Below are positions 1,757-44,414 of a DNA stretch of 64,000 bases, piece after piece; the stretch's first letter is position 1, and each line of letters begins with the position of its first letter. The position numbers and the translations under genes are program-made. The notes beneath the pieces are model-generated. The model ran no database searches, was not told the origin of the DNA, and worked only from the letters and a program-made list of their open reading frames with translations. Location: IMG/VR virus record IMGVR_UViG_3300023435_000009, one strand, 5' to 3'. Origin of the DNA: a virus (Duplodnaviria; Caudoviricetes).

Positions 1757-3843
1757 AACTGAAAGCCGACTCGTTGGTAGCAGGGTACAGGCCCCCGATG
1801 GAGGAGCTTACGGGGTGGAAGACCTTTACTCCGTCCACAGACGGCACCAGGCCGCCCGCTACGTCCCCCAAGGACCAGGCCCTGCCCTCACCCCCCAACA
1901 GTCGGAGTAAGCCCATAGGGAAGCCCTCCCTCAACGCACCACCCTCTTCTGAGGATGCACTCGATGGAAGGCCCTTGCACACGGACCGAGTTCGGACTTT
2001 GGCTATCCCAGGTGAGTACAGCCCTCATCCGAACCCTGAACCTCGGACGACGCCTGTCCGGCGACAGAATCTGGCAGCGAGAAGGAAGGTGGCTGGGGGC
2101 TATTATGATCTGAAGCCCCAAACACCTGTGTCTGAGGTTCTTAAGCGGTGGGTGGGTGATGGGGCCAAAGCCTACGATGACTCCATGCCTCAGTTCTACT
2201 CCGCTCAGGAGTTGTGGCCCTACCGTGAGTTTACCCGGAAACGGGAGACTGCTCTCAGGGGATTTGCACGTGTCCGTGGGAAGATGGTAGAGCTTCCGGG
2301 GTTTGTCAAATGGGACGTCCTCAAACAGGACATGCAGAAACGAGGGTGGGATCTTAACAGTCCGTTGCTTCTGTTTGTGGGAAGGAACGGGTCGGCCAAG
2401 ATAGGGGAAGGGAACCATCGTCTTGCGATAGCCAAGGAGTTGGGGCTTAAGCGGATCCCTGTGCGGTTCCTATTTGACCAGAGGGTGGTCAAGGAAAAGC
2501 CCCCTACAGTGTCTCCTCAGGCAGTGAAAAAGGTCGTGGAGAAAGAGGTCCAGAAGCCGCTCTCTGATAAAGACCGGGTTCAGATCGAGGGCCTCATGCA
2601 GCAGATGGAGGACATGGGAATCCTGGCTGCAATGAAGGGTCCGACTTTTCCTGGGATGAACAGGCAGCGCAAGCAGTACGGGGACGCCAAGCGTTATCAG
2701 AAGCAGTACTACCTGAAAAACCGGAACAAGATCCATCAGCGAATGACTCGTTGGTACCGAAAGTACAAGTCCAACCCGTTGTTGAAGAGGGACAAAAAAC
2801 GTCGTCAGGATTACCCCAATCGTTTCAAGAGGTTCCCTGGGGGATTCGGGTCCAACAGTGAACGAGGGAAAGACTGGCGGGAGAAGCAGAAGAAGGCAAC
2901 CTGGGAGGTCGGTGTCCCGATCTGGTATCTACCCTGGGATGAAGAGGGTCACTTGATGTCCGTGGACACTGCTACGGGGACAGTGCTGGTACGAACGCCT
3001 AGCGGGTCAGAGACCCTAACCCTTCCCGAGATGTTCGAGTCCATTGTGTTCGAGTCCGAAGAAGACATGGAGAAGGTGTTCGCTTTCCTGGACGAGGCGT
3101 TGGGGTACGCCCCCGGTGAGGACGATCCTGAGGATCCCAACCAGGAGTCGTTGATCGATCAGTGGTACTTTCCTACGGAGAAGCTGGGCTGGTTCATGGA
3201 AAAAGGTCCAGCAGATAGTTCCGTTGAGTACTACAACAGAGGTACGGACAAGAAGCCTGAGGAGCACCAACCTCTGGAGGGCTTTGAGCCGTATGACCAC
3301 CCGGTTATGGACAATCCTGGATCCGCCAAGGTGATACCCTGGAACTCTGATCTGGTCAACAATAAGGCTGCTGCTCGTATCGCTGAGATTCAGGAGGGGT
3401 GTTCCACAAAGCTAATGGAACAGGCCAAGGGTTTGATCCCCCAGAGAGTTCGGTACAGCCCCCGGAACAAGATGTGGTTGTTCGACGTGCCTGGCTCGAA
3501 GGGGGCTTACCGAGTCCGTGTGAAGGTGTTGCCCAAAGGGAACACCACGACCGTCTCCAAGATGGATGTTTTAGTTTCGTGTTCCTGTCCGTATTGGCGG
3601 TGGCAGGGTCCTGAGCACTGGGCGAAGGTAAATGATTACTTGTATGGACGCTCCCAAGGGACAGCAGCCAAACCTTCGATGAAGGATCCTGATGGTACGC
3701 ACAGAGCCTGTAAGCACGTACTTGCTTGTTTTGAAGCAATGAAGAATTATGCGTTAATTAAGCGGCGTAACAAAAAAACAGCGGCAAGGGCCACAGCCAT
3801 TGCCCATCGGTATTTGGGACAGGCAAACTGGAGGCAGTGTTGA
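1753..3843 (+). CDS. multidomain protein with ParB/Srx-like domain and C-terminal SWIM-type zinc finger
   Basis: IGEGNHRLAIAKELGLKRIPV resembles the ParB-N DGxHR motif; SCSCPYW...RACKHVLA fits the SWIM CxC...CxH pattern. Confidence 0.7.
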   Translation: MKLKADSLVAGYRPPMEELTGWKTFTPSTDGTRPPATSPKDQALPSPPNSRSKPIGKPSLNAPPSSEDALDGRPLHTDRVRTLAIPGEYSPHPNPEPRTTPVRRQNLAARRKVAGGYYDLKPQTPVSEVLKRWVGDGAKAYDDSMPQFYSAQELWPYREFTRKRETALRGFARVRGKMVELPGFVKWDVLKQDMQKRGWDLNSPLLLFVGRNGSAKIGEGNHRLAIAKELGLKRIPVRFLFDQRVVKEKPPTVSPQAVKKVVEKEVQKPLSDKDRVQIEGLMQQMEDMGILAAMKGPTFPGMNRQRKQYGDAKRYQKQYYLKNRNKIHQRMTRWYRKYKSNPLLKRDKKRRQDYPNRFKRFPGGFGSNSERGKDWREKQKKATWEVGVPIWYLPWDEEGHLMSVDTATGTVLVRTPSGSETLTLPEMFESIVFESEEDMEKVFAFLDEALGYAPGEDDPEDPNQESLIDQWYFPTEKLGWFMEKGPADSSVEYYNRGTDKKPEEHQPLEGFEPYDHPVMDNPGSAKVIPWNSDLVNNKAAARIAEIQEGCSTKLMEQAKGLIPQRVRYSPRNKMWLFDVPGSKGAYRVRVKVLPKGNTTTVSKMDVLVSCSCPYWRWQGPEHWAKVNDYLYGRSQGTAAKPSMKDPDGTHRACKHVLACFEAMKNYALIKRRNKKTAARATAIAHRYLGQANWRQC

Positions 3844-4595
3844 GAGAGAATCGACTCATACTTCAGTGTCCAAGGTGCAGAAAATTCTTCCCACGTAAAG
3901 CAAGTATTGTTCGGGAACTGCGCAAGCGCAACCCACAGGTTCAAATGTGCTGCGGAACTCAGTGTGCAAGTAGCTTGAAACGACGGGTGGTGAAGATAGA
4001 GGACAGGAAGATTTTTGAGTATCTTATTGGGGTGGTGTTGGGTGACGGGCATGTGGGTGATAGAGCCGTTCGGGTTGCTGTCGGATTACAGGATGAGGAA
4101 TATGTTGAAGTCCTGAGTTCACTGTTCCAATTGGGGGTAGGTACAGCACCTACGATTCAAAGAAATGTAATGGCTCGTTCATATCAGGTTGTGTTGTGTT
4201 TCTTGGCGGGGGCAGAGTTGTTCCAACCCTATAAGTATTTAGGGGGCTGTGAGTGGTCATTAAAAGGGATCAAACATCCTGGGTTTGTTTTGGGTGGGCT
4301 CTGCGATACGGACGGTGGTTGGGAAATCAAGAAAGGACGCCGGATTGCCTTCACCATAACCCAAAAGGATAACGGAAATTTGGAACGAACTCTTCCCCTT
4401 TGGAAGAGTCTCGGGATAATTGTCACTTTGCGTCATTATGCTGTTGACCGAGCGGTGTTGAGAGTGCCCTCAACATCCCAGGAACGATTCCAGAAAAAGG
4501 TGATGTTATTTCATCCCCGGAAAAAGTTCGCTACTCCTGATTGGTATCCTGTACGTGCAGGGGAAAAAAGGAGCAGTCAAAATGCCGACCTATGA
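3837..4595 (+). CDS. LAGLIDADG homing endonuclease (two motifs) with N-terminal Cys cluster
   Basis: YLIGVVLGDG and FVLGGLCDTDG motifs; AT-richer than flanks; GGAGG RBS (start GTG 3837 or TTG 3840). Confidence 0.85.
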   Translation: MLRENRLILQCPRCRKFFPRKASIVRELRKRNPQVQMCCGTQCASSLKRRVVKIEDRKIFEYLIGVVLGDGHVGDRAVRVAVGLQDEEYVEVLSSLFQLGVGTAPTIQRNVMARSYQVVLCFLAGAELFQPYKYLGGCEWSLKGIKHPGFVLGGLCDTDGGWEIKKGRRIAFTITQKDNGNLERTLPLWKSLGIIVTLRHYAVDRAVLRVPSTSQERFQKKVMLFHPRKKFATPDWYPVRAGEKRSSQNADL

Positions 4596-5065: not shown

Positions 5066-6457
5066 TTGAGAGTCACCCGCATTCTTCAGGCAGATGTCCC
5101 ACCCACCTTGTTGCAGATATGTAAGGTTACAGGGTTTCTTCGTGCAGACATCTGGCGCAGATATGGCGCTCTGAAGAATGTAAGTAAAAGTGCGTTGGAC
5201 ATCCGTAAGGAAATCGTAGCAGGTGGTTTTTACGCCTCTCTCGACGTAGACGGAACCATACGTAATGAAACGACCAAAGACGTCGTGAACGACATCCTAC
5301 TCTATAAAGCAGCGGCAAAGGGAAAGGTTCGCAAAGCAATTGCGCTGCGAACTGACGACAAGACAGAACGTAAACGACTCTACACACTCTTGAAGTCCGA
5401 TAAATGGCTGGAGGATTCCTTTCTCCATCGTCAAATGCGTAAGCATTTCAAGCACGGTGTCTCACACACGAAAAATCAGTTTGTCGTGAGATCCGACCAA
5501 TTCAAAATAAAACACGTTGCTGGTTACCTAACTATCACTATTCGAATCGCTCGTAAATATGGTGACAATATAGTTCTGACGACAACTTCAAATGGTACAA
5601 ACGTAGACCTGAGTGGTTGTAACCTTCGTGTTATTGTGAAGGATGATGTAACTGAAATCCATTACAGTATGGACAAGGGTGAGGGACGTACGCACGGTAG
5701 CCAGACGTTGGGCGTTGATAAGGGCTATACCGAAGCATTCGTTGATTCGGATGGTGAACATCATGGTGAGCAGTTCGGTGCTGTGATGACTGAGTACAGC
5801 GATAAGGTCAGTAAGACTGGTTCAGCTAGGAACAAGTTACATGCTCTGGAGAAAAAACACCGTCAGGGTGGAAACCTCAAAAAAGCTGACAACATCAGGA
5901 CTCACAATCTTGGGCGTAAAAAGATTGATGCCCGCAGGCAACTAGCTCAAACACAACTACGAGGTATTGCCTTCAAGGCTACCCATACCATTGTGGATAA
6001 GGCAGCAGTAGTTGTATCAGAGGATCTAACCTCTCCGATCGCAAAAAAACGACCTTGGAAAAGGTTTAATAGAAGAATGAGTGGCTGGGCAAAGGGAGCA
6101 CTTGCTGAGGCCCTCGATTCGGTTTGTACGCAGCGTGAGGCCAGTCACGAACTGGTCAACTGTGCCTACACATCGCAGATGGACTCTGTAACAGGTTTGC
6201 TGCAAGGTAAACGTGTTGGGGACAAGTTTCACCGTATTAACGGGGATGTTATTCAGGCCGATCACAATGCTGCATTGAACGTGTTAGTCCGGTTGTCTGA
6301 CAAGGACATCGGGCGTTTCACCTCCTATCAAGAGGTGAGGCGCATCTTGTTGGCACGTTCTCCGGCGGAACTGACCGTCAAGAGGCACGAGTTGCAGTCG
6401 AAAGGCTATCAACCGTGTGCGGATAAACCCTCACGATCAGAAGTGATCAACTTCTAA
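5066..6457 (+). CDS. tnpB: IS200/IS605-family TnpB-like RNA-guided nuclease, no adjacent transposase
   Basis: RuvC-I LGVDKG, RuvC-II VVSEDL, VNCAYTSQ, RuvC-III QADHNAALN; TTG start after AAGGAG. Confidence 0.85.
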   Translation: MRVTRILQADVPPTLLQICKVTGFLRADIWRRYGALKNVSKSALDIRKEIVAGGFYASLDVDGTIRNETTKDVVNDILLYKAAAKGKVRKAIALRTDDKTERKRLYTLLKSDKWLEDSFLHRQMRKHFKHGVSHTKNQFVVRSDQFKIKHVAGYLTITIRIARKYGDNIVLTTTSNGTNVDLSGCNLRVIVKDDVTEIHYSMDKGEGRTHGSQTLGVDKGYTEAFVDSDGEHHGEQFGAVMTEYSDKVSKTGSARNKLHALEKKHRQGGNLKKADNIRTHNLGRKKIDARRQLAQTQLRGIAFKATHTIVDKAAVVVSEDLTSPIAKKRPWKRFNRRMSGWAKGALAEALDSVCTQREASHELVNCAYTSQMDSVTGLLQGKRVGDKFHRINGDVIQADHNAALNVLVRLSDKDIGRFTSYQEVRRILLARSPAELTVKRHELQSKGYQPCADKPSRSEVINF

Positions 6458-6471
6458 GGGACAGGTAACTC

Positions 6472-7272
6472 ATGAGCGACACATTTGGCCCCTTCAACGT
6501 TCGCCCCGGTGTGCTGCAACGCTCTACCAACTTTCAGGATCTGGTGTTGCGTCACCGTGAAGGGACAACGGCGTATCGCCTTTGGGTGTCCGACTCGATT
6601 GAGAACGCCTATGGGACGTTGGCCAACTCAGGTCTCGCTGGTACTGGCGGCACAATGATGCTGGAGGTTGCCAAGGGAAGCTTGGGGATGACCGCTGGAC
6701 CTCGTGTGCGTGGTTGGCGTGTAGAGGAGAGCAGGAGGGGGCAGACCAGCTTTTTGGTAGATCCCAGGGATGTGCCTCTTTCCGATAACGTGGTGGTTTA
6801 CCATCGGGTGCAGGAGCAGCGGATGGGCAACTGGCTCGCCGTGCCTGCTGGTGCTATTCTCAACCCCAATAACCCTATTGGGGGACCAACTCTTGTTGTG
6901 CCTCCTGCTCCCTTTTTTGCAGCCTCCGCCAGTGTCCTGAGTCTTCAGTCCCTGGCCCCATTGATGACGGGTTGTGCCGGGGGGGTTCTCCCAGTCGTGG
7001 ACGAGACACTCCAGACGCCTACACCGATGCATCTGGTGTTCCCCCGTCCGGCGAGCACCATTATCGTCCGGAACCTCTCTGTGGGGGACACATTGTTGGT
7101 CTCCTTCAGTTTGGGGATGCCTATGATCGAGGTGGCTCCTGGTGAAGCTACAATCCCCACGGGTGGTGGTTATGCCCTCCCCGGAGTCCGGGAAATTGTG
7201 GTTGCTTCGTGGGTGCAGGGGCAAGATGCCGTCCCCTTCTCCGTAGAAGCTACGATTGGAATGCAAGTTTAA
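6472..7272 (+). CDS. hypothetical protein (probable virion structural protein)
   Basis: 266-aa ORF in the structural cluster; no recognised motif. Confidence 0.7.
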   Translation: MSDTFGPFNVRPGVLQRSTNFQDLVLRHREGTTAYRLWVSDSIENAYGTLANSGLAGTGGTMMLEVAKGSLGMTAGPRVRGWRVEESRRGQTSFLVDPRDVPLSDNVVVYHRVQEQRMGNWLAVPAGAILNPNNPIGGPTLVVPPAPFFAASASVLSLQSLAPLMTGCAGGVLPVVDETLQTPTPMHLVFPRPASTIIVRNLSVGDTLLVSFSLGMPMIEVAPGEATIPTGGGYALPGVREIVVASWVQGQDAVPFSVEATIGMQV

Positions 7273-7365
7273 CTCCCACTCAGATCGGCCTGAATAGATC
7301 CCTTATAACTGCCGCTGGATGACTGACTAGGGTGCCCCGGTGCCCACAACGTATAGAGGTGTAAG

Positions 7366-9690
7366 ATGCCGTACATCTGTCTCGCCCGAGATGATATCCC
7401 CAACGGTGTGGTTCAGGTTCTGGATCTTCAGCCCAACGCTTCCCAGCCCCCTCCGGGCACCCCTACGGCACAGTCACGTTACGTCAATCGGCCCTTGGCG
7501 GCTCCGGTGTCCGTGACTGCTGCCGGTGGTCTGGCTGCGGACGGTTTTGGCCTCGCAGCTTATTTGATGGACCGGGTTGAGCCTGGTGGTTTGGAGGTGG
7601 CTGCGGCTACCCTAACGGCAACCAGTCCTCTCCACGGGGACACAGTCACGGTGGCGGGCGTCGCTTTGACGGCCATCGCCAACTTAGCAACCGGAACCGC
7701 TCAGATGGTGGGTCCGACTGCTGCTGACACGGTCACGGTGGGAGTTACACCCTTCACCTGTGTGGAAGCCGTCGCAACCGGAACCGCTCAGATGGTGGAT
7801 CCGGTGGATGCCGACACCATCGACATCAAGACGGTCCCCTTCCTTTGTGTCGAGAACTACGCCGTTGGGACAGCGACGGTTGGCGGTGCAACTGCCGCTG
7901 GTGATACTCTTGTTATCAAGGGCGTCATCTTCACAGCGGTCAACCCTGGTCCCGGTGTTCCTGCCAACCAGACGTTCACCGATGTGGCTGGCTCAGGTAG
8001 TGCCATCCTCACGGCTGACTCTCTGGTGGCGACGATTAACGATCCTGCATCTCAGGTCCTGATTTTGGCTGCGGCTCCGGCGGGGATCACGGGAGTCGTT
8101 GCTGACAATGTCGGGGGTACCTCCGCAGTTGTCACCCTCACGGCGGATCACCTGGGTCTCCAGGGGGAACTCAGCCTGGTCCAGACTGGTGGAAACATCG
8201 TTGTGTCTGGGGCAGCGATGGTTGCTGTGGTTCCGGATCCCGCTGTTCAAGAGTTCGCTGGACTCCTCCAGGCGGTCGGTGGGACCAACATCGCAGTGGC
8301 CACCTCCTTGGCCCTGGCCGTCAACGACCCCGCTTCCCAGGCGCTTATCCTTGCGGCTGTCGCTCCCGCTGGTGGTGCCGTGTGTGCCGCAGCGACAGGT
8401 GGAACGGATACAGTGACCCTCACGGCGGATCTTCCCGGAGCACAGGGCGACTTTGCACTGGCTGAGAGCACCGCTGGAGCACGGGTGACCATTTCTGGTG
8501 CTGCCTTGGTCCATGTGGACGCTGACCCGGCGACTCAGGAGTTCAATTCACTTGCCCACTACGCCCCAGCGGGAACCAACGTAGCTGTGGCCACAAGCCT
8601 CGTGCTGGCCCTCAACGACGTAGCGAATCCTGAACCAGTGGGCGCTGACAACGCTGGAGGCACCCTCGACACCGTCACAATCACGGCGGGCAACAGGGGC
8701 CTGGTTGGGGAACTGGCGTTGGCAGAGAGTACCGTTGGAGCACGGGTGACCATCTCTGGTGCGACCCTGGTAGCGATCCTGCCGGTAGCGGCGACCCAGG
8801 AGTTTGCAGCTCTGGCGGCGGTAGCGAACAACGACGCTGTCGCCACCTCCTTCCGTACCACCCTCGTGGACGGAGCTACCATTGCCCTCATGCAGATCGT
8901 GACAGGTGGTCCTTATGTATCGGCGGTAGCGCCGGGTGCGGCAATCGTTACTATGACAGCACTGGATGCTTTGGCGGCGGCGCTCATCGGTCCCACCGGG
9001 AACATGCAGTTCATCACCTCCAACGATACACGGCTGGTGCAGGATGCGGTGGCAGCGGTGACGAGCACTCTGAACCGTGCTCACCAGACCTGGACGGGGG
9101 CCTTCCAGGTTGCCACGGCGGCAGCCCTCCAGGCACGAGTGGACGCTGGGACAGCAATGGCGCTGGCGGATCTCGATACGGTTCTGCTGGCTCAGGGTGG
9201 TGGCGAACTGACGGTACTCGGTGGAAGCAATTCGACCGGCACGGTGGTGGACGTCCTGTCCATCCTGGCGGGTCGGGGCTACAGGGCACCCACCAACAAC
9301 GATCAGACGGGAGCCGTCAACATCTACATGACGGGAGCCGCCACATGGAACCCGGTCACGCTTGGTGGGTTCACCGAACTGGTCCGGGAGTTCAGCGCCA
9401 ACTGGGGTCACGGAGAGATCCGTTCCATGGCCATCGGTGGTGACTGGGTGGCTCGGGAGATCACCCCAATCCGTCACACGGTGGACACGGATGCCCTTCA
9501 GATCTCACTGGCACATGGTACTCTGGCTGTGTTTGGAGCGGTTGCTGGACAGCCTCCGGTCACGCTCTGGCCGGACAGTGACTTCCAGCCCTTCTACCCC
9601 TGGACCTATCAGAAGACCCTGGGGTTCCCTACGGTCAACAACGCCCGGCTTTTGACCATTTATGATGACACAGGCGCTGTCCTGGCATAA
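7366..9690 (+). CDS. Ala/Gly/Thr/Val-rich virion protein, paralog 1, with four nested repeat domains
   Basis: 774 aa; shares YIxLxRxDI...LDLQPN N-terminus and YDxTGAV C-terminus with the next two genes; GAGGT RBS. Confidence 0.8.
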   Translation: MPYICLARDDIPNGVVQVLDLQPNASQPPPGTPTAQSRYVNRPLAAPVSVTAAGGLAADGFGLAAYLMDRVEPGGLEVAAATLTATSPLHGDTVTVAGVALTAIANLATGTAQMVGPTAADTVTVGVTPFTCVEAVATGTAQMVDPVDADTIDIKTVPFLCVENYAVGTATVGGATAAGDTLVIKGVIFTAVNPGPGVPANQTFTDVAGSGSAILTADSLVATINDPASQVLILAAAPAGITGVVADNVGGTSAVVTLTADHLGLQGELSLVQTGGNIVVSGAAMVAVVPDPAVQEFAGLLQAVGGTNIAVATSLALAVNDPASQALILAAVAPAGGAVCAAATGGTDTVTLTADLPGAQGDFALAESTAGARVTISGAALVHVDADPATQEFNSLAHYAPAGTNVAVATSLVLALNDVANPEPVGADNAGGTLDTVTITAGNRGLVGELALAESTVGARVTISGATLVAILPVAATQEFAALAAVANNDAVATSFRTTLVDGATIALMQIVTGGPYVSAVAPGAAIVTMTALDALAAALIGPTGNMQFITSNDTRLVQDAVAAVTSTLNRAHQTWTGAFQVATAAALQARVDAGTAMALADLDTVLLAQGGGELTVLGGSNSTGTVVDVLSILAGRGYRAPTNNDQTGAVNIYMTGAATWNPVTLGGFTELVREFSANWGHGEIRSMAIGGDWVAREITPIRHTVDTDALQISLAHGTLAVFGAVAGQPPVTLWPDSDFQPFYPWTYQKTLGFPTVNNARLLTIYDDTGAVLA

Positions 9691-9702
9691 CGGAGGATCC
9701 TA

Positions 9703-10500
9703 ATGGCACGTGCGTACATTGCTCTGGTTCGTGGAGACATTGACGACAACATGCTGCAGATCCTCGATCTCCAGCCCAACAGTTCCCAGCGGAACTCGGT
9801 CTACGACGGCGCAGGGCAGACCGGCTACATGGCGTGGACGCCCCAGCACGACGTCGTGGTCACCGCCGTCCCGGTAGCGAATACCCAGATGGTGGCGGAT
9901 TCCTATGGCCTGGCAGCCTACCTGGTGGACAACGTCGAGGACAACGACAACGCAAACATCATCCTCACGGATGCCCGTGCCAACGCAGTCGCTACAGGCA
10001 TCCTGAATGCTGTGGTTGCAGGGACGGCAGTCACTCTGGCAGCTATTGATGCTCTCATCGCAATTGCTACGGGTGGTGCTACGTCCGGTCTCGCCACGGC
10101 GGACTCTACCGGGACGGTAGAGGAAGTTCTCCGTATCCTCGGCGGCGAGGTTTACAAGGTGGCTGCGGCGGCGACCCTGTCAGGCGCTGCGGCAGCCTTT
10201 GTCGGTCCCGTACACGTTCCCGCTGGCGGGTTCGTAGTGCCCGTAACGGTCAATGGAATCGTGACGTACCCCTCCGACTGGCGGAACGTTCGCACGTTCA
10301 TGGACAACGGTTATTTGCACCTGTCCCGGCTTGCCGGAAATCTGTCACAGGTTGCAGCGGCGACCTACGTGTGGGACAACCCGGCGCTCACCTACGGGGC
10401 AGCGGGTACGGCCCTCTTTGTGGACGCCACCCAGATGCTTACCACGATTTCCAGGGCGCTAGTGGTGTACGACGCTACGGGTGCCGTGATCACCACTTAA
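9703..10500 (+). CDS. virion protein paralog 2 (core only)
   Basis: 265 aa; GGAGG RBS; 5' DNA nearly identical to the gene at 10513. Confidence 0.8.
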   Translation: MARAYIALVRGDIDDNMLQILDLQPNSSQRNSVYDGAGQTGYMAWTPQHDVVVTAVPVANTQMVADSYGLAAYLVDNVEDNDNANIILTDARANAVATGILNAVVAGTAVTLAAIDALIAIATGGATSGLATADSTGTVEEVLRILGGEVYKVAAAATLSGAAAAFVGPVHVPAGGFVVPVTVNGIVTYPSDWRNVRTFMDNGYLHLSRLAGNLSQVAAATYVWDNPALTYGAAGTALFVDATQMLTTISRALVVYDATGAVITT

Positions 10501-10512
10501 GGGAGGATTCCG

Positions 10513-11685
10513 ATGGCACGTGCGTACATTGCTCTGGCTCGGGGAGACATTGACGATAACATGTTGCAGATCCTCGATCTGCAACCCAACAGTTCCCTTC
10601 GTAACCCAATCTACGAGGGTGCAGGACAGACCGGCTACATGGCGTGGACGGCCCAGAACGAGACAATTGCCCACACGAACGTAGGTGGTTTTCTCCAAGC
10701 GACTGCCACCTACGTCGGCCTGGCAACCTACATCGGTGCAAGGGTCGATGACATCACGGGCGGTGGTAACAACTGCGTGGTGGCGCTGGAAGCCAACAGG
10801 GCAGCGCAGGCTATCCTTGCTCGGGTTCGTCAGGGTCAGGCTCTGACTCTGGCCGGGATCAATGCAGCAATCCAGTCCGTGCCCGGTTTGGCCACCTCCG
10901 GTATCGTCGGAACAGGTACATCAACCGCAACGGTGGCGGAAATCCTTCGCATCGTGGGCGGGGAAGTGTTCCAAATCGCTGCCGCCATCCCCTTCTCAGG
11001 TGCTGCTGGGATCTTCCTCGGCACGGCAGGAGCCTTCATTGTCCCCGTGGTGGTCAACGGAATCACAACGTATCCGGCAGCTTGGCGACACGTCCGCCCG
11101 TTCATCGACACCGGCTCGCTGCATCAGTCCCGCTTCACGGGTGCCCTGTCTCAGCTTGCCGCTGCGACCTATGTGTGGAACAACCCGGCACTCACCTATG
11201 CCCCGGCCAACACCGCTACGGGTACAGCGCTCGTCATCGCAGGTTTGGTAGCGGGTGACACCTTCACCCTCAAGGACATCCCCTTCACCTGTGTCAATGG
11301 TGTGCCCAACCCGGCGGTCCAGGAGTACCGGGACATCGCCGGATCAGGAAGTGCCGTGGCCTCGGCTACGACCCTGGCGGCAGCGATCAACGACCCCGCC
11401 ACCCAGGTGCTCATCGCAGCAGTCGCCCTGGCTGGGCCGACTTGTGCGGCAACAAATGTGGGTGGCACCTCCGCCACGGTGACCATCCTCGCTTCCGTCA
11501 TGGGCGCTCAGGGGCAGTTCACAATGCTTCAGACGGGTGCCCACCTCACCCTCTCCGGTGCTGCACTGGTTGCAGCCGCAGACGCCAGCGATCAGGGCTA
11601 CTGGGTAGACGCCACGCCCCTGACATCTACGACCAGCCTGGCGCTGACGGTGTACGATGCAACCGGAGCCGTGATCCTCAACTGA
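10513..11685 (+). CDS. virion protein paralog 3 (core plus one inserted repeat domain)
   Basis: 390 aa; GGAGG RBS; insert at about 11210-11580 resembles the repeats of 7366..9690. Confidence 0.8.
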   Translation: MARAYIALARGDIDDNMLQILDLQPNSSLRNPIYEGAGQTGYMAWTAQNETIAHTNVGGFLQATATYVGLATYIGARVDDITGGGNNCVVALEANRAAQAILARVRQGQALTLAGINAAIQSVPGLATSGIVGTGTSTATVAEILRIVGGEVFQIAAAIPFSGAAGIFLGTAGAFIVPVVVNGITTYPAAWRHVRPFIDTGSLHQSRFTGALSQLAAATYVWNNPALTYAPANTATGTALVIAGLVAGDTFTLKDIPFTCVNGVPNPAVQEYRDIAGSGSAVASATTLAAAINDPATQVLIAAVALAGPTCAATNVGGTSATVTILASVMGAQGQFTMLQTGAHLTLSGAALVAAADASDQGYWVDATPLTSTTSLALTVYDATGAVILN

Positions 11686-13643: not shown

Positions 13644-15017
13644 ATGTCCAACAAAGTGAAATGTCCTGCATGCGGAAAAGAGATCGCTGTTAAGGGTGTC
13701 CCTGGGCACACGAACGGCTGTCCCAAGTGGAATGGTTTTTCCAAGCTCCCTCCTTCTGAGTTTGACTTCGACCGCTACTACCGCCGGAAGCTGTGGGCTG
13801 ACGGGATGGTAGAGGGAGAGGACTATGTGTCCTGCTTCCTGTGTGGGGGGGACCACCGGGCGAGGAGGCTGGCGGATCATCTGAAGGTGAAACATCAAAT
13901 GACCACGGAGGCGTACCGGGAGGTCTTTGATGGTGTCCTTGTGGTTGCCAAGGGGAGTCTCCGGCAGCGGGCGGCTACGGTACGGGAACGGTACGGAGTG
14001 GACAACGTGGCTCAGGCTGTGGAGATCCGGCAGAAGCTGGTTGAAAACAGCCGGGCTGCAGATCCAGACGTGGTAGCCAAACGGAAGGCAACCAACGTGG
14101 CCCGCTATGGGCACGAGAACCCGTTTGGAGGGGAGGGTGGTAGTGAACGGGCACGTCGGGGGATGAAGGCCAAGTACGGGGCCGAGAACCCCCAGCAAGT
14201 GCCTGAGATCCGGGAAAGGACTATCAAAACGACGGAGGAGAGGCACGGTGCCCCCTCGACGTTTGAGACTGAGGGGTACAGGGAGCGGTTCCGAAAGATC
14301 AGCCAGGAGCGGTTCGGGGCGGACCACCCAATGCAGTCCGAAGAGGGGAAGAGGCGTTGTTTCCGCACCATTCAGGCTCACCATGGGGTGGATACTGTGT
14401 TTGCTCTGCCGGAAGTCCAGGCCCGTGCCTACGCCTCCAACCTTGCCAACCACGGGGGCCGTCACTCTCAGCAGTGCCCCGAGGTGTTGGCCAAGGCACG
14501 GGAAACCTGGATGGAGAAGTACGGGGTAGATAACCCGTCCAAGTGCGAGGAGATCAAGGCCCGGATCAAGGAAGTCTGGATGGGGAAGTACGGGGTGCCT
14601 TTCCCGCCTCAGAGCATGTGGTTTAACCGTGAGCAGAGTTGTCCCAACAAGCTGGAGCAGGCTGTTCAGAAGATGCTCCCTGCCTATGTTGTGTTTGCAG
14701 GGGATGGGTCCTACTGGGTGCGTTGTGCTGGGGCGTCACGGGCAAGGAACCCAGACTTCGTGGTGTTGACCCATGACCAGCTTGAGGCGTACAAGGCGGG
14801 TGCAGCTCTGAATGGTCTCAGGACGTGGCGCATCATCGAGGCGTTTGGTGATTATTGGCATGGACCCCTAAAGACGGGAGTAGACCGACAGACGCATAAA
14901 CTAGATGTTATTGATTATTACACGAAGGCCGGGATCCAGTGCCTCATCCTGTGGGAATCTGAAATCAAAAAGCATCCTCGTCAGACGGCGGAGCGGTTGA
15001 GATCCTTCCTGGGATGA
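13644..15017 (+). CDS. free-standing homing-endonuclease-like protein (Zn fingers, KYGVDNP repeats, Vsr/PD-(D/E)xK-like C-terminus)
   Basis: CPACG and CFLCG...HLKVKH fingers; repeated RYGVDN/KYGAENP/KYGVDNPS; RNPDF...IEAFGDYWHG...ILWESEI. Confidence 0.75.
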   Translation: MSNKVKCPACGKEIAVKGVPGHTNGCPKWNGFSKLPPSEFDFDRYYRRKLWADGMVEGEDYVSCFLCGGDHRARRLADHLKVKHQMTTEAYREVFDGVLVVAKGSLRQRAATVRERYGVDNVAQAVEIRQKLVENSRAADPDVVAKRKATNVARYGHENPFGGEGGSERARRGMKAKYGAENPQQVPEIRERTIKTTEERHGAPSTFETEGYRERFRKISQERFGADHPMQSEEGKRRCFRTIQAHHGVDTVFALPEVQARAYASNLANHGGRHSQQCPEVLAKARETWMEKYGVDNPSKCEEIKARIKEVWMGKYGVPFPPQSMWFNREQSCPNKLEQAVQKMLPAYVVFAGDGSYWVRCAGASRARNPDFVVLTHDQLEAYKAGAALNGLRTWRIIEAFGDYWHGPLKTGVDRQTHKLDVIDYYTKAGIQCLILWESEIKKHPRQTAERLRSFLG

Positions 15018-16012: not shown

Positions 16013-16041
16013 TTGACACAGTCTTTCCTTTTTTGTATAAT
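16013..16041 (+). promoter_or_regulatory. consensus sigma70 promoter, probably producing a leaderless tnpB mRNA
   Basis: TTGACA (16013-18) - N17 - TATAAT (16036-41); ATG 6 nt downstream with no RBS. Confidence 0.8.
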
Positions 16042-16047
16042 CCAATC

Positions 16048-17280
16048 ATGAAGGTGATTCGCTCCACCAAGTGTACTCTTAAGTTCTCCACAGCAGCTAA
16101 ATTGGCTACCCTGGAGATGGTCCTTGCAGAGTATGGGCAGGTTACCAACTTTTTCATCCAGTACTTATGGGTTCTCCCCAAGGTACCTTCCAAGAGCGCA
16201 CTGCTCAAACCCATCGTAGACCTTCCCAAAACGTGGCTCAGTGCCCGCTTACGTAAAGTAGCCGCTAGGGAAGCTATTTCGATGATTGTTGCCGCAAAGC
16301 GACGATGGAAGGACAAGGCCGTACAACCAACGCATAACGGTAAGTCGATGTACGTTTCATCGACGATTGCTGAGTTGCACGAAGCGCAGGACGCCACGGA
16401 ATTCGATTACTGGCTTAAGTTGTGGTCTATTGGTAGAGGGATTATCTTCCATCTCCCAATCCGACTCCACCAGCATTACCATAAGTTGGCTGCCCGAGGC
16501 AAGCGTCTCAACAGCTATGTTATTACCGCTGAGTCCGTTACCTTTGCTTTTGAAACAGACACTGGCCTTAAACGAACAGAAGGTCATCCACTTGGTGTTG
16601 ATACAGGAATTAAAGCGCTTGCGACCACGTCGGATGGTTTGCAGCTTGGTACCGATATCCAACCAATGATCGAGCGGATTAATCGTTGCAAGCATGGGTC
16701 GAAGGGACAGAAGACTGCCCGCAGGGCCTTGAAACAACGGATGGATGAGGTTGCCAGGGATCTTTTAGAAATTCCTGACATTAAGATAATAGTGGTTGAG
16801 AACCTTCGGGGTCTCAATCACAAGAGTCGTGTCAAACGTCGCTTGACCAAAAATATGCGGCGATCTCTTGGTTCGTGGGCTTATCGTTATTGGTTGGGTC
16901 GGGTTCAGGGTCGTTGCGAGGACAACCGTGTTGTCTTCAAAGCGGTGAACCCAGCGTATACTTCTCAACGATGTCCTGAATGTGGTTACACCGAGAGGGG
17001 GAATCGAAACGGAGAGGTGTTCAAGTGTCGGAAGTGTGGTCACACCGACAACGCAGATGTTAATGCTGCCAGGAACATTTTGACTCGATTTCGCTGGGGA
17101 CCTTACGGTGCCCCATTCAAACCTAGCGTCAAAGTCATGAAAGGGACGGTTGTCCCCGATAGTTTTGTGTTAGGAACGGTACAGTCCCCACATGGCAGGA
17201 TTCGTCTACATTGTTCAGGCCGAGGACACCTATCGTTTCAAGGTGGGTCAAACGGTGAATCTTCCTCAGCGGATGCGTAA
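16048..17280 (+). CDS. tnpB: IS200/IS605-family TnpB RNA-guided nuclease, no adjacent transposase
   Basis: LGVDTG, IVVENL, YTSQRCPECG...CRKCG...NADVNAARNI; catalytic D/E/D and zinc finger all present. Confidence 0.9.
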   Translation: MKVIRSTKCTLKFSTAAKLATLEMVLAEYGQVTNFFIQYLWVLPKVPSKSALLKPIVDLPKTWLSARLRKVAAREAISMIVAAKRRWKDKAVQPTHNGKSMYVSSTIAELHEAQDATEFDYWLKLWSIGRGIIFHLPIRLHQHYHKLAARGKRLNSYVITAESVTFAFETDTGLKRTEGHPLGVDTGIKALATTSDGLQLGTDIQPMIERINRCKHGSKGQKTARRALKQRMDEVARDLLEIPDIKIIVVENLRGLNHKSRVKRRLTKNMRRSLGSWAYRYWLGRVQGRCEDNRVVFKAVNPAYTSQRCPECGYTERGNRNGEVFKCRKCGHTDNADVNAARNILTRFRWGPYGAPFKPSVKVMKGTVVPDSFVLGTVQSPHGRIRLHCSGRGHLSFQGGSNGESSSADA

Positions 17281-41103: not shown

Positions 41104-41829
41104 ATGCAGCACTACATCTATTTTTTAGAGGACGCAAAAAATGAGGCCATTAAGATAGGGACATCCACAAACCCTCGGGACCGAGCATCTGCTATTCAGG
41201 TGTCCACACCGTCTAATGTGGTTCTTTTGCGTTATGTCCCGGTCAAGGCTCCCTATGATGTGGAGGAGTTTCTGCACCGGCAGTTTCAACATCTTTATAT
41301 CAGGGGGGAGTGGTTTCGGAATGTCCCGGAACTCAAGGAGTTCGCTCTGAGGGGGGACGTTCCGCAGTTTGTTCCTCAGGGTCAAAGGTCATCTTGTGCA
41401 GTAGCCTTGGACACGGATGACAAATGGTCTCTGCCCCAACTCTCAGAATTGGTGGGGGTCTCCGCCCGAACTATCAGGTACTACATCTCCATTTACCTTT
41501 TGCCTGGTCCTTGTCGTTCTGGACCGGGGGCCTACTACACCGAAAAACATCGGGTGATGCTTCTTTTTATCTCTGAGAAGAGGGCACAGCGGCTGAGTCT
41601 CACTGAGATCCGCTCTTTGTTGGAAAAGTCACTGCCCACAGAAACCAGATCTTTACCCCAAACTCCGGCTCAAAAGGAGATCGTGTATGCTGTTTCCGAT
41701 GATGTGATTGTACGCATTCCAGAGAGACTTTCCCCTTGGAGAAAAAACCGCATCCTTTCTGGTTTGGCTCAGTTTGAGCGAGACATTCAAAAGATCCCGG
41801 ATATTGCAGACGAAAACGAGGAGATTTGA
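41104..41829 (+). CDS. GIY-YIG (T5orf172-like) domain fused to a MerR-type HTH
   Basis: YIYF...IKIGTS...GEWF, then WSLPQLSELVGVSARTIRYYIS..LLPGP...YYT..H...LSLTEIR. Confidence 0.8.
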   Translation: MQHYIYFLEDAKNEAIKIGTSTNPRDRASAIQVSTPSNVVLLRYVPVKAPYDVEEFLHRQFQHLYIRGEWFRNVPELKEFALRGDVPQFVPQGQRSSCAVALDTDDKWSLPQLSELVGVSARTIRYYISIYLLPGPCRSGPGAYYTEKHRVMLLFISEKRAQRLSLTEIRSLLEKSLPTETRSLPQTPAQKEIVYAVSDDVIVRIPERLSPWRKNRILSGLAQFERDIQKIPDIADENEEI

Positions 41830-41831
41830 CG

Positions 41832-44414
41832 ATGAGAGGCATGGCACAGGAACTCGGAAACGTATTGGTGAATCCGCACACGCACGTCCCAGTGCCCCTG
41901 GCGATGGAGAAGATGGAGATGACAGGTCAGGTCACTCCTGCGGGTGGGTTGATGACCATCGTCCACAGCTTCAAGTGCGCCGGGGACCAGCCCATGGAGG
42001 CGCTGTACATCTTCCAGCTTCCCCGTGGTGGGGCCGTCCGGCGGTACAAGGTGAAGGGAAAGGACTTCGAGGTGGACTCCCAGCTTACCCCGAGGGAGGA
42101 CGCCCGGAAGGAGTACGAGGCTGGCGTGGAGGCCGGTCACCTGTCCACCCTGGCGGAGACTAGCCTGGACGGGGTCGTAACCATCATGGTGGGACAGGTC
42201 CAGCCCGATGAGACGGTCACGGTCGCTGTTGATGTGATCGGTGGGGTGGAACTGCAGGACGGGCGGTACCGCTTCCGGTTCCCCTTTACCCTGGCCCCCA
42301 GCTATCACAGCATTGCCCGCATCACGCCCACTTCTGGTGGTTCCAAGATGGAATTGCCTCAGGACATCTTCGATGAGTTGGTCCTGCCCGAGTGGAAGGA
42401 CAACGCCGAGGAGTTGCACGAGATCAGTTTCAGGCTTCACCTGGAGGCCGCTGGTTTGGTCGGTACCGTGTCCTCCCCCTCTCACAACGTGACGATGCAG
42501 CAGAACATCAATGGTTCCGCTGACGTTTGGCTGGCGGGCCTCTCCTCGTCCCCGGATCGGGATCTGGTCATCGACGTGTCCACCCGTGAGGTGGCCCCGG
42601 TGGTGTTTGCCGATCAGTCCATAGTGAAGGGGAAGCCATCTAAGGGCAAAAAAGGTCATCCCCGGTGGATGGTCGCCCTCCCCTCCGAACTCGTCCCACA
42701 GGCCACCCAGGTGCCCAGGAAGGTGATTTTCATGGTGGATCGCTCCGGCTCCATGCGGGGGAAGAGGATCGAGCAGGCCCTGGTGTCCGTGAAGGCGTGT
42801 CTTTCCGGGTTGGCTCCGGAGGATCAGTTTGGTCTGCTCCGGTTCGACAGTATGACGGAGACCTTCCATAAGAGCTTGGCGCAGGCTACCGATGACAATC
42901 GTGCTCGTGCGGCCCGCTGGTTGCAGGGGACACACTCTCAGGGTGGGACGCAGTTGGCTACGGCCTTGTCGGAGGCTCTGACGATCCTGGATGGTGATGG
43001 AGACATTTTCCTGATCACGGACGGTGAGGTGTGGGAGACCGGCCCCATCGTGGAGTCCATGGCTGCTTCCGGGAGCCGTGTCCATGTGCTGGGGATCGGG
43101 GGTGCTGCCCAGGATCGCTTCCTGGCCCAGCTTGCCCGGCGTACCGGCGGCGTCCAGAAGATGCTGAACCCCTCGGAGAACGTGCTCGCAGGGGCTATGG
43201 AACTGTTCAACGCCGTCAAGTGCCCCCGTCATTCCGACGTGAAGGTGCTGGTGGAGATGAACGGTTCGGCCAAGCCTCAGATGCACGAGGTCGGGGACGT
43301 GTGGGACGGTCGGCCTGTGTTCATCACGGACAACGGTGGGTCCAAGAACGGTTCCTACCCCGTCAGGATGGGCCTTGTTGGGATGAGTGTGGTGGTGGAC
43401 GTACCCACCCAGCGGGAGCTTTCAGAGGGTGCTGTGAGCCTTTTGTGGGCTGGGCGGCAGGTTGAGGATCTGGAAACCGCCATCGATATGGCTGGGAGTG
43501 GCCCGGCTCGGGTGGCAATGGAGACCAGCCTTAAGAAGATCTCGGTCGATTTTGGTATCGCCAGTCGGGTGATGTCCCTTTGTGCTATCGTCAAACGGGT
43601 CGGGGATCAGGCCGGGGTGACCCCGGAGCAGCGGGTGGTACCCACGGGTGTCCCCTACGACAAGGTGTTGGGCAGCGTACTTCGGAGTGCCAGCCCCAAC
43701 GACATCATGGTGAACCATTGTTTCGCTGCCTCCGCAGCATCTCACGAGCCCCCTACGTTTGGCGGTGTCCTCCATGCGATGTCCCCGGACACCTACGGGT
43801 CCACCGGGATGAATATCCGTCGTTCCTCTGTGAGGGGTTCGTCCATTGGTGCCTCCACGAAGGGATCTTCTGGCACTTGGGCAGATAGTTCTGGCACCTG
43901 GGCGGATAGTTCTGGCACCTGGGCGGATGATGTGGGAGTCGCCACTACGGGGGACAAGGACTACGGCTCGGACGGTTTGGGAGTGGAACTGCTCTTCGAT
44001 CAGGATCCGGGTGAGACTACCCCTTCGGTGAACACCTTGGGCCAGTCCCCTGTTGTATCCAGTACCCTGGGTGCCATTGTGCAGCATATGACCCTGCTGG
44101 CCCAGATCCAGTCCGATGGTGGATTGCCTGGGGCAACCCACGAGATCAGGGTGGCCAAGACTTTGCTCCTGGCACTCAAGTTGCTCCAGACTACGGTGCT
44201 GACGCAGACGAGCATGTATAAGGCGCACCTCACCCGGATGGCTGATTTCCTGGAGGCGGTGGGGTCGATTTACGACTTCCTGCCCCCTCTGGCCAAGAGG
44301 CTCAGGGCTGCATCTTCCCAGGTGCCGGGGGAGTGGGTACCGCAGGGTAACCTGGACGGTGCGGCGGCTCAGGCCACTATCGCTTCCGTCCAGATGGCCT
44401 TCCTTTCCAGGTGA
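41832..44414 (+). CDS. VIT plus von Willebrand A domain protein
   Basis: N-terminal VIT-like EALYIFQLP..GAV; MIDAS motif VDRSGSM...GGTQL...ITDGEV; start ambiguous (41826/41832/41841). Confidence 0.85.
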   Translation: MRGMAQELGNVLVNPHTHVPVPLAMEKMEMTGQVTPAGGLMTIVHSFKCAGDQPMEALYIFQLPRGGAVRRYKVKGKDFEVDSQLTPREDARKEYEAGVEAGHLSTLAETSLDGVVTIMVGQVQPDETVTVAVDVIGGVELQDGRYRFRFPFTLAPSYHSIARITPTSGGSKMELPQDIFDELVLPEWKDNAEELHEISFRLHLEAAGLVGTVSSPSHNVTMQQNINGSADVWLAGLSSSPDRDLVIDVSTREVAPVVFADQSIVKGKPSKGKKGHPRWMVALPSELVPQATQVPRKVIFMVDRSGSMRGKRIEQALVSVKACLSGLAPEDQFGLLRFDSMTETFHKSLAQATDDNRARAARWLQGTHSQGGTQLATALSEALTILDGDGDIFLITDGEVWETGPIVESMAASGSRVHVLGIGGAAQDRFLAQLARRTGGVQKMLNPSENVLAGAMELFNAVKCPRHSDVKVLVEMNGSAKPQMHEVGDVWDGRPVFITDNGGSKNGSYPVRMGLVGMSVVVDVPTQRELSEGAVSLLWAGRQVEDLETAIDMAGSGPARVAMETSLKKISVDFGIASRVMSLCAIVKRVGDQAGVTPEQRVVPTGVPYDKVLGSVLRSASPNDIMVNHCFAASAASHEPPTFGGVLHAMSPDTYGSTGMNIRRSSVRGSSIGASTKGSSGTWADSSGTWADSSGTWADDVGVATTGDKDYGSDGLGVELLFDQDPGETTPSVNTLGQSPVVSSTLGAIVQHMTLLAQIQSDGGLPGATHEIRVAKTLLLALKLLQTTVLTQTSMYKAHLTRMADFLEAVGSIYDFLPPLAKRLRAASSQVPGEWVPQGNLDGAAAQATIASVQMAFLSR
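43869..43931 (+). repeat. 21-bp in-frame tandem repeat x3 (SGTWADS)
   Basis: TCTGGCAC(T/C)TGGGC(A/G)GAT(AGT/GAT). Confidence 0.9.

Follow-up and report, generated by a model that had tools for sequence, protein, structure and literature searches.

The protein P0001, encoded in a 64,000-nucleotide stretch of viral DNA (Duplodnaviria, Caudoviricetes; IMG/VR record IMGVR_UViG_3300023435_000009; hereafter the window), is in our view likely to be a late-region protein of a huge phage in which a domain of about 125 residues occupies one loop of a base protein and has received three further copies of itself, each inserted in the previous one. The domain, here called the unit, is composed of an N-half and a C-half, and P0001 carries four N-halves followed by four C-halves. 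An earlier note on this DNA had read the arrangement as one domain nested in itself, and that reading is supported by the ranges of the predicted model that single-domain templates cover, by the equal counts of both halves among relatives, by the covariation between halves and by the duplication of blocks of units. Throughout, halves are numbered by nesting, C4 being the first C-half in the sequence and C1 the last, and k is the number of units per protein.

Organization of the repeat and portability of the unit

The repetition of the unit in P0001 is confirmed. Its N-halves, of 29-30 amino acids (aa), end with LTAI at aa 104, FTCV at aa 133, FLCV at aa 162 and FTAV at aa 192, and its C-halves, of 88-96 aa, carry a P..Q.F motif that starts at aa 199, 292 and 388, the fourth C-half being a diverged variant. 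A scan of the window with hidden Markov models (HMMs) of the two halves returned four N-halves and four C-halves in P0001, one of each in the paralog P0003 and none elsewhere; motifs and profiles together bear out the four N-halves and four C-halves that had been described for the gene starting at 7366. The halves follow one another as N N N N C C C C rather than as a contiguous tandem repeat, (NC)(NC). P0001 shares with the paralogs P0002 and P0003 the N-terminal ~75 aa and the C-terminal ~200 aa of the base, and the gene starting at 10513, said to hold one intact copy, indeed encodes one N-half directly joined to one C-half (Table 1).

At the DNA level, positions 7687-7711 and 7774-7798 are identical (25/25 nucleotides, nt) and positions 8475-8501 and 8736-8762 differ in a single one (26/27 nt), exactly as previously quoted. 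Measured against shuffled sequences, the similarity between N2 and N3 has a z of 14, that between C3 and C2 a z of 26 and that between C4 and the single copy of P0003 a z of 25, while N1 and C1 resemble the other halves least (z ~2-5). The identities had been taken as an argument for nesting, a use that they do not allow: the similar middle N-pair and middle C-pair are mirror-symmetric, and hence fit equally well a nested pairing and a parallel one, in which N_i would go with the i-th C-half in sequence order. The proposal that the innermost N4-C4 most resembles the single copy holds for C4 but not clearly for N4, which scores 59 versus 63 for N2.

The insert of P0003 (aa 236-363) stands in place of one residue of P0002, so that the two ends of the unit are adjacent. 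Within the base family, units are found at residue ~75-90, which is the nesting site, at ~232 (P0003), at ~180 (P0118 and P0173), at ~107 and at ~131. A 402-kb relative encodes, at L001 8709-9896, an ortholog of the neighbouring protein P0004 with 130 additional aa, which form one complete unit, with independent E values of 4e-8 for the N-half and 2e-25 for the C-half. As this protein is unrelated to the three paralogs, the module moves between host proteins. The unit is a mobile plug-in domain that lands in surface loops and, its own N|C junction being one such loop, recursion is possible.

Table 1. Position of the P0001 gene, of the halves of its units and of the adjacent genes in the window. 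Unit assignments follow the nested reading.
Feature	Residues	Position	Strand	Remarks
P0001 gene	774 aa	7366..9690	+	base protein with putative four-deep nest
Base, N-terminal part	1-75	7366..7590	+	common to P0002 and P0003; aa 3-72 align with P0002 aa 5-79
N1	76-104	7591..7677	+	N-half of outermost unit; most diverged N-half
N2	105-133	7678..7764	+	three β-strands; partner in model, C2
N3	134-162	7765..7851	+	partner in model, C3
N4	163-192	7852..7941	+	N-half of innermost unit, contiguous with C4; range 163-288 gives Z up to 10.4
C4	193-288	7942..8229	+	C-half of innermost unit; short strand, two helices, four strands
C3	289-384	8230..8517	+	templates cover 134/135-384
C2	385-472	8518..8781	+	templates cover 104/105/106-471
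C1	473-566	8782..9063	+	C-half of outermost unit; most diverged C-half; HMM independent E value 6e-21
Base, C-terminal part	567-774	9064..9687	+	homology to paralogs; one relative in AlphaFold DB
P0002	265 aa	9703..10500	+	paralog; base alone, k = 0
P0003	390 aa	10513..11685	+	paralog; base with one unit at another site
P0003 single contiguous unit	232-356	11206..11580	+	whole insert is aa 236-363
P0004	266 aa	6472..7272	+	neighbour unrelated to the three paralogs; without unit in the window

Copy number in the family

Relatives of P0001 were collected by a word-indexed search, which gave 31, and by an exhaustive HMMER search, which gave 236 cluster representatives at E <= 1e-3; the HMMs of the N- and C-half, built and iterated on the family, were run over 175 sequences. 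No half was present in 72 of them, one N-half and one C-half in 39, two of each in 14, three of each in 19, four of each in 6, five of each in 2 and seven of each in one. The comparison of nesting depth among homologs that the earlier note had proposed hence gives depths from 0 to 7, always with equal N and C counts, and in all of the 81 balanced relatives with k = 1-7 the order is N^k C^k. Unequal counts were returned for 22 of the 175 sequences, which either are contig-end fragments or have a half that is below threshold or undetected at the expected place. A clearly unbalanced full-length protein does not occur among the 175 members scanned, and whole-unit tandem order (N..C N..C) was never seen in the family.

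The turnover of units was followed on a maximum likelihood tree of the base only, with the units removed, from 86 full-length proteins. At least 32 changes of k are required on this tree, at least 22 of them being required among tips with k >= 1, versus 48.9 ± 2.1 when the labels are shuffled; the clade of P0001 contains proteins with k = 2, 3, 4 and 7. At least 22-32 changes without clear imbalance imply that the numbers of N- and C-halves changed together many times. Nesting depth is therefore very labile in the family, with both numbers changing jointly.

Pairing of the N- and C-halves

Two kinds of sequence evidence bear on which N-half goes with which C-half. For covariation, 126 N- and C-halves from proteins with k >= 2 were aligned to the HMMs, and the top-20 values of mutual information, after average product correction, were summed over N-C columns. 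The sum amounted to 4.83 for mirrored pairs, 2.95 for parallel pairs and 2.20 ± 0.10 for random pairs within the same protein, and mirrored exceeded parallel also when k = 2, k = 3 and k >= 4 were taken separately. Effects of the type of position are equal for both pairings at a fixed k, and thus do not explain the difference between mirrored and parallel pairs.

The second kind is provided by duplicated halves, the C-halves being numbered for this purpose in sequence order. In P0013 (k = 7), N2 resembles N5 (62%), N3 resembles N6 (48%) and N4 resembles N7 (46%), and among the C-halves the first resembles the fourth (54%), the third the sixth (52%) and, more weakly, the second the fifth (38%). 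In P0036 (k = 5), N2 equals N4 (100% aa, 93% nt) and N3 resembles N5, with the second C-half matching the fourth (84% aa, 80% nt) and the first the third. The halves without a twin in both proteins are N1 and the last C-half. If the protein is nested, these two are the outermost unit, which means that whole inner units were copied as a block: units 2-4 into 5-7 in P0013, and units 2-3 into 4-5 in P0036. Under parallel pairing, N1 would instead go with a C-half that has a twin. The covalent order points the same way, since N_k is bonded to the first C-half as in a single unit, which brings the end of N_(k-1) next to where the second C-half begins, in the arrangement that an N|C junction requires. 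Mirrored pairing of N_i with C_i is thus favoured by covariation and by block duplications alike.

In P0036, encoded at 6001-8766 of locus L003, the identity of N2 and N4 at the nucleotide level is higher than that of their partner C-halves (93% versus 80%). The mismatch suggests either a recent gene conversion of the N-half or unequal rates after one block duplication.

Predicted structure of the nest

The AlphaFold2 model of P0001, obtained with an alignment of 85 sequences, has a mean predicted local distance difference test (pLDDT) score of 92.4 and a predicted template modelling (pTM) score of 0.71, with no segment below 50. In the model the N-half consists of three strands and the C-half of a short strand, two helices and four strands, and the successive all-β N-halves are joined by two-residue turns. 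Contiguous single-domain templates of the PDB, of 100-120 residues, superpose on three ranges of the model with ~85-97 aligned residues and a root-mean-square deviation (rmsd) of 2.4-3.2 Å. Range 163-288, which is N4 with C4, is matched by many chains, the best being the sheath protein of cyanophage A-1(L) (8kee; Z 10.4, rmsd 2.4 Å, 96 residues). Range 134/135-384, N3 with C3, is matched by the Helicobacter pylori flagellins FlaB (9yh1, Z 6.4) and FlaA (9ygu) and by Campylobacter jejuni flagellin (6x80), and range 104/105/106-471, N2 with C2, by FliD (9m67 and 9m6h), by D2/D3 of Pseudomonas aeruginosa FliC (8erm) and by the XM1 sheath (7kh1). The FliD proteins of Escherichia coli, Salmonella and Serratia, through D3 and the strand that returns into D2, cover 104-484, that is, unit 2 and the first strand of C1.

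A fit of ~90 residues that runs from the start of N_i to the end of C_i while skipping 125 or 251 residues implies that N_i and C_i together make one domain. In the model, N_i and C_i would accordingly close into a domain with the fold of the contiguous innermost unit, as the earlier note had expected of an AlphaFold prediction, and they do so from discontinuous halves for i = 4, 3 and 2; the opposite outcome, N-halves folding together apart from the C-halves, is not what the model shows. Host and insert appear as copies of one fold, the halves being homologous and the three ranges sharing templates, and the splitting of the host around the insert through more than two levels is seen in the predicted model only, with homologs reaching k = 7.

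Fold of the unit and of the base

The matches of the unit are outer domains of the sheaths of A-1(L), PhiTE, Mu, Milano and Sf14, T7-like nozzles, flagellins and FliD. Sheath and nozzle chains superpose on one unit with Z 8-10.4, rmsd 1.9-3.0 Å, 79-97 residues and 13-28% identity; 14 chains reach Z >= 8 and 8kee covers 96 of ~126 residues, a moderate margin over the typical best background of Z 7-8. In AlphaFold DB, flagellins of 547-847 aa were aligned over several units, together with an entry named tail protein; another entry, named head decoration protein D (gpD), has a unit-like domain (E 9e-4) and is a weak lead. The predicted fold of the unit is that of the outer domains of phage tail sheaths and of flagellin and FliD, and the comparison with sheath proteins made in the earlier note was well chosen, the best structural match of the unit being a sheath outer domain.

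At the level of profiles no relation of the unit to sheath, flagellin or FliD was detected, a profile of 72 units giving nothing significant against all PDB sequences; neither was a consistent or significant Pfam family found for 72 contiguous units. The one PDB sequence that this profile hit was 6mnt_A (E 0.75, not significant), a putative coat protein of 126 aa that has the strand motif of the N-half, G-D-x-x-T-I-x-G-V. Whole-protein searches were equally sparing. Pfam and PHROG scans, which covered P0001-P0004 and neighbouring open reading frames, assigned no family to P0001, P0002 or P0003; tblastn against 50,697 phage records gave one weak match only, to a 485-kb uncultured phage; Foldseek with the whole P0001 model found nothing in the PDB at E <= 1e-3; and an Atlas search with the same model returned template modelling (TM) scores below 0.5 only, among them a cement-protein cluster (TM 0.44) that is a weak lead. 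The AlphaFold2 model of P0002, the base alone, has a pLDDT of 89 and a pTM of 0.88. Its best PDB match is an unrelated lyase (VIA-align Z 4.7; Foldseek E > 6), and no sheath chain, and with it no sheath core, is listed among its structural matches. Language-model searches for look-alikes of P0002, P0004 and the open reading frame at 289-1287 were uninformative.

Relation to known nested and repeated proteins

Insertion of one fold into itself has been described for the HABAS/SBHM domains of Si3, a region of the β′ subunit of cyanobacterial RNA polymerase (PMC11515920; PMC10895346), where SBHM-2 to SBHM-5 are assembled from distant sequence segments (PMC10895346); in a survey of 2.7 million domains the six-level nesting of Si3 is the extreme case (PMC13114784). 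The earlier statement that self-nesting of one repeat is unusual is right as to its rarity, but there is a published precedent. Like Si3, P0001 has copies of one fold several levels deep, discontinuous host copies and an elongated appendage on one loop of the host. It differs in being a viral protein, and its unit seems to have another fold and to belong to another sequence family: no HABAS/SBHM chain is among the matches listed for the unit, which has two helices, unlike the all-β SBHM. Si3 is moreover irregular, with some copies continuous, some swapped and the nest branching, whereas the P0001 family is strictly N^k C^k with linker-free junctions; the depth of Si3 is essentially fixed within cyanobacteria, whereas that of the P0001 family goes from 0 to 7 among close relatives with fast turnover; and the P0001 module, in addition, hops to other sites and host proteins. 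Recursive self-insertion is thus precedented in Si3, and the case of P0001 adds a virus, an apparently different fold, a regular grammar and variable depth.

In FliD, a loop of D2 carries D3 as an insertion (PMC8533109). FliD D3 and flagellin D2/D3 resemble the unit with Z 5.4-7.7 and rmsd 2.6-3.0 Å over ~90 residues, and share with P0001 the out-and-back hairpin and the insertion of one domain in another. They show no detectable sequence relation to it, and their D0/D1 helices are unrelated to its base. Two or three levels of insertion are described for the flagellar proteins, without a regular repeat, unlike the nest of P0001.

The classic example of nested domains is T4 gp18, a sheath protein, although its nested domains have different folds. 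Outer domains of sheaths and nozzles are the best structural matches to the unit and are surface-exposed accessory insertions, but no sheath core is recognised in the base and no profile matches. Tandem Ig-like head decoration proteins, such as T4 Hoc, place a string of small domains off the virion in variable number. P0001 likewise has a string of small domains that varies in number and that would presumably project from the virion; however, the repeats of the Hoc type are contiguous and their chain runs one way, whereas the units of P0001 are split except the innermost one and both ends of the chain return to the base.

Alternative explanations and points against nesting

Two tandem arrays grown independently, the N-halves forming a β-meander stalk and the C-halves autonomous domains with one bead per stalk segment, would agree with the all-β succession of N-halves and two-residue turns, and ordinary tandem duplication within each array would end in the very sequence that the observed block insertions give. 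This explanation is nevertheless very unlikely: the templates cover N_i and C_i together, from the beginning of the one to the end of the other, the 29-aa N-half of k = 1 proteins cannot be a domain of its own, the many changes of k never led to a clear imbalance, and covariation favours mirrored pairs. We regard as highly improbable, too, that N_i is completed by the i-th C-half in sequence order, or by that of another subunit in a domain-swapped oligomer. Secondary-structure elements are indeed exchanged between the HABAS domains that are inserted recursively in Si3 (PMC11515920), and the mirror-symmetric similarities of the middle repeats are compatible with either pairing. Against this, the covalent link of N_k to the first C-half is the very one found in the single unit, the AlphaFold2 monomer closes the nest confidently, mutual information is higher for the nested than for the parallel pairs, and it is N1 and the last C-half that lack a twin in P0013 and P0036.

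Several points weigh against the nested architecture itself or against its place on a virion. The structure behind the nesting is predicted, not solved; the topology was deduced from where the aligned residues of the template superpositions begin and end, without model coordinates, and none of those superpositions provides a template over N1 and C1, the most diverged unit. A model trained on the 39 single-unit (k = 1) proteins found nested pairing best in 7 of 14 proteins with k = 2 and 8 of 19 with k = 3, and a mapping of gaps across proteins, which is noisy, favoured nested pairing 30 times, parallel 4 times, both 12 times and neither 41 times. The P0002 model found no convincing relative of the base fold in the PDB, BFVD or Atlas, and that P0001 belongs to the virion is something that we infer.

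Proposed architecture and growth of the nest

Taking into account the linker-free junctions, the balanced counts and the duplicated blocks, we propose the following model. The portable domain would occupy one surface loop of the base, between aa 75 and 567, and each further unit would sit exactly at the N|C junction of the preceding one, without linker. The chain would run outward through N1-N2-N3-N4, turn, and come back through C4-C3-C2-C1, with N_i and C_i closing up into a compact domain, so that the nest would be a rod of four beads, each of which the chain crosses twice. Growth and shrinkage could proceed by copying a block of whole units that spans the centre into the innermost junction or, by an equivalent route, through two out-of-register recombinations of matched size, one in each array; only products balanced in N and C would survive. 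As no unbalanced full-length genes are found, either both changes are simultaneous or selection against orphan halves is strong. The rod may, with an even chance, be a solvent-exposed virion arm of adjustable length, probably at the head or neck, with its distal unit as the interacting end. Relatives with 0 to 7 copies make the nest look like an extendable surface arm; that it is a truly telescopic one, tuned stepwise by block copying, with an outermost unit specialised for the base and a fast-evolving innermost unit as binding tip, is a rather doubtful though attractive extension of the model.

Gene neighbourhood and the possible virion arm

The block formed by a polyprotein gene, a P0004-like gene, a gene for a protein with k >= 1 and one or two short paralogs is arranged in the same way in three relatives: a 402-kb contig (k = 3), a 518-kb groundwater contig (k = 5) and a 104-kb IMG/VR contig (k = 1). 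In the 104-kb record, which is ~20% complete, no HK97 capsid family was detected. The position of the gene in this block, the exposed nature of the structural relatives of the unit and the out-and-back topology are what speak for an external arm, and whether the nest is such an arm, of adjustable length, is in our judgement an evenly balanced matter. The k = 4 orthologs P0008 and P0009 are 36-41% identical to P0001 in the innermost C-half and 48-70% in the middle ones, which hints that the distal tip may be evolving fastest and could be the interacting end.

It is also possible, if unlikely, that the nested fold is right and that P0001 is no external arm: it could, for example, be internal, a scaffolding protein or a late protein without structural role, with a repeat number that drifts neutrally. 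The base has no family or fold match that would place it, and the outer domains of FliD, which have the same fold, are dispensable for function (PMC8533109). Yet the unit resembles in structure accessory domains that are exposed on virion and flagellar proteins, the order of the gene block is conserved across distant huge phages, and the balance of halves was held through many changes of k, all of which tell in favour of the external arm.

The nested gene and its short paralogs extend over 7366-11685 in the window, 10001-13837 in L001, 6001-10648 in L003 and 10001-12064 in L004. In all four loci, one or two short base paralogs come after the long nested gene (265/390, 299/311 and 300/312 aa; in L004, one of 264 aa alone), and a hetero-oligomer is conceivable; a complex prediction for P0002 with P0003, run without controls, scored 0.00 and speaks neither for nor against one. 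The window has a high density of homing endonuclease and TnpB genes. Around the three paralogs, a LAGLIDADG endonuclease, two TnpB-like genes and one more homing-endonuclease-like gene break up the late-gene block, at 3837-4595, 5066-6457, 13644-15017 and 16033-17280, and the syntenic blocks of L001, L003 and L004 are without most of these endonuclease and TnpB-like genes. The late region includes, at 41826-44414, the gene for a protein of 862 aa that has VIT and von Willebrand A domains, and L001 has a von Willebrand A protein of 829 aa at the matching place.

Significance

The nest is well supported as an architecture. In this family, nature provides a clean series from k = 0 to k = 7 in which a single domain is inserted recursively into its own copies, without linkers and strictly as N^k C^k. 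Since closure of the outer units has to await synthesis of the inner ones, the family should be a tractable model for the folding of discontinuous domains, and it could show how nested architectures grow without passing through unbalanced dead ends. For protein design it would be a scaffold whose length is set by nesting depth while both ends are kept together. Recursive self-insertion, documented mainly in cyanobacterial RNA polymerase, would also occur in viruses, with another fold, and the family could show how phages tune the length of a surface appendage. If the telescopic arm is real, huge phages would be able to alter how far a virion appendage reaches, one step at a time.

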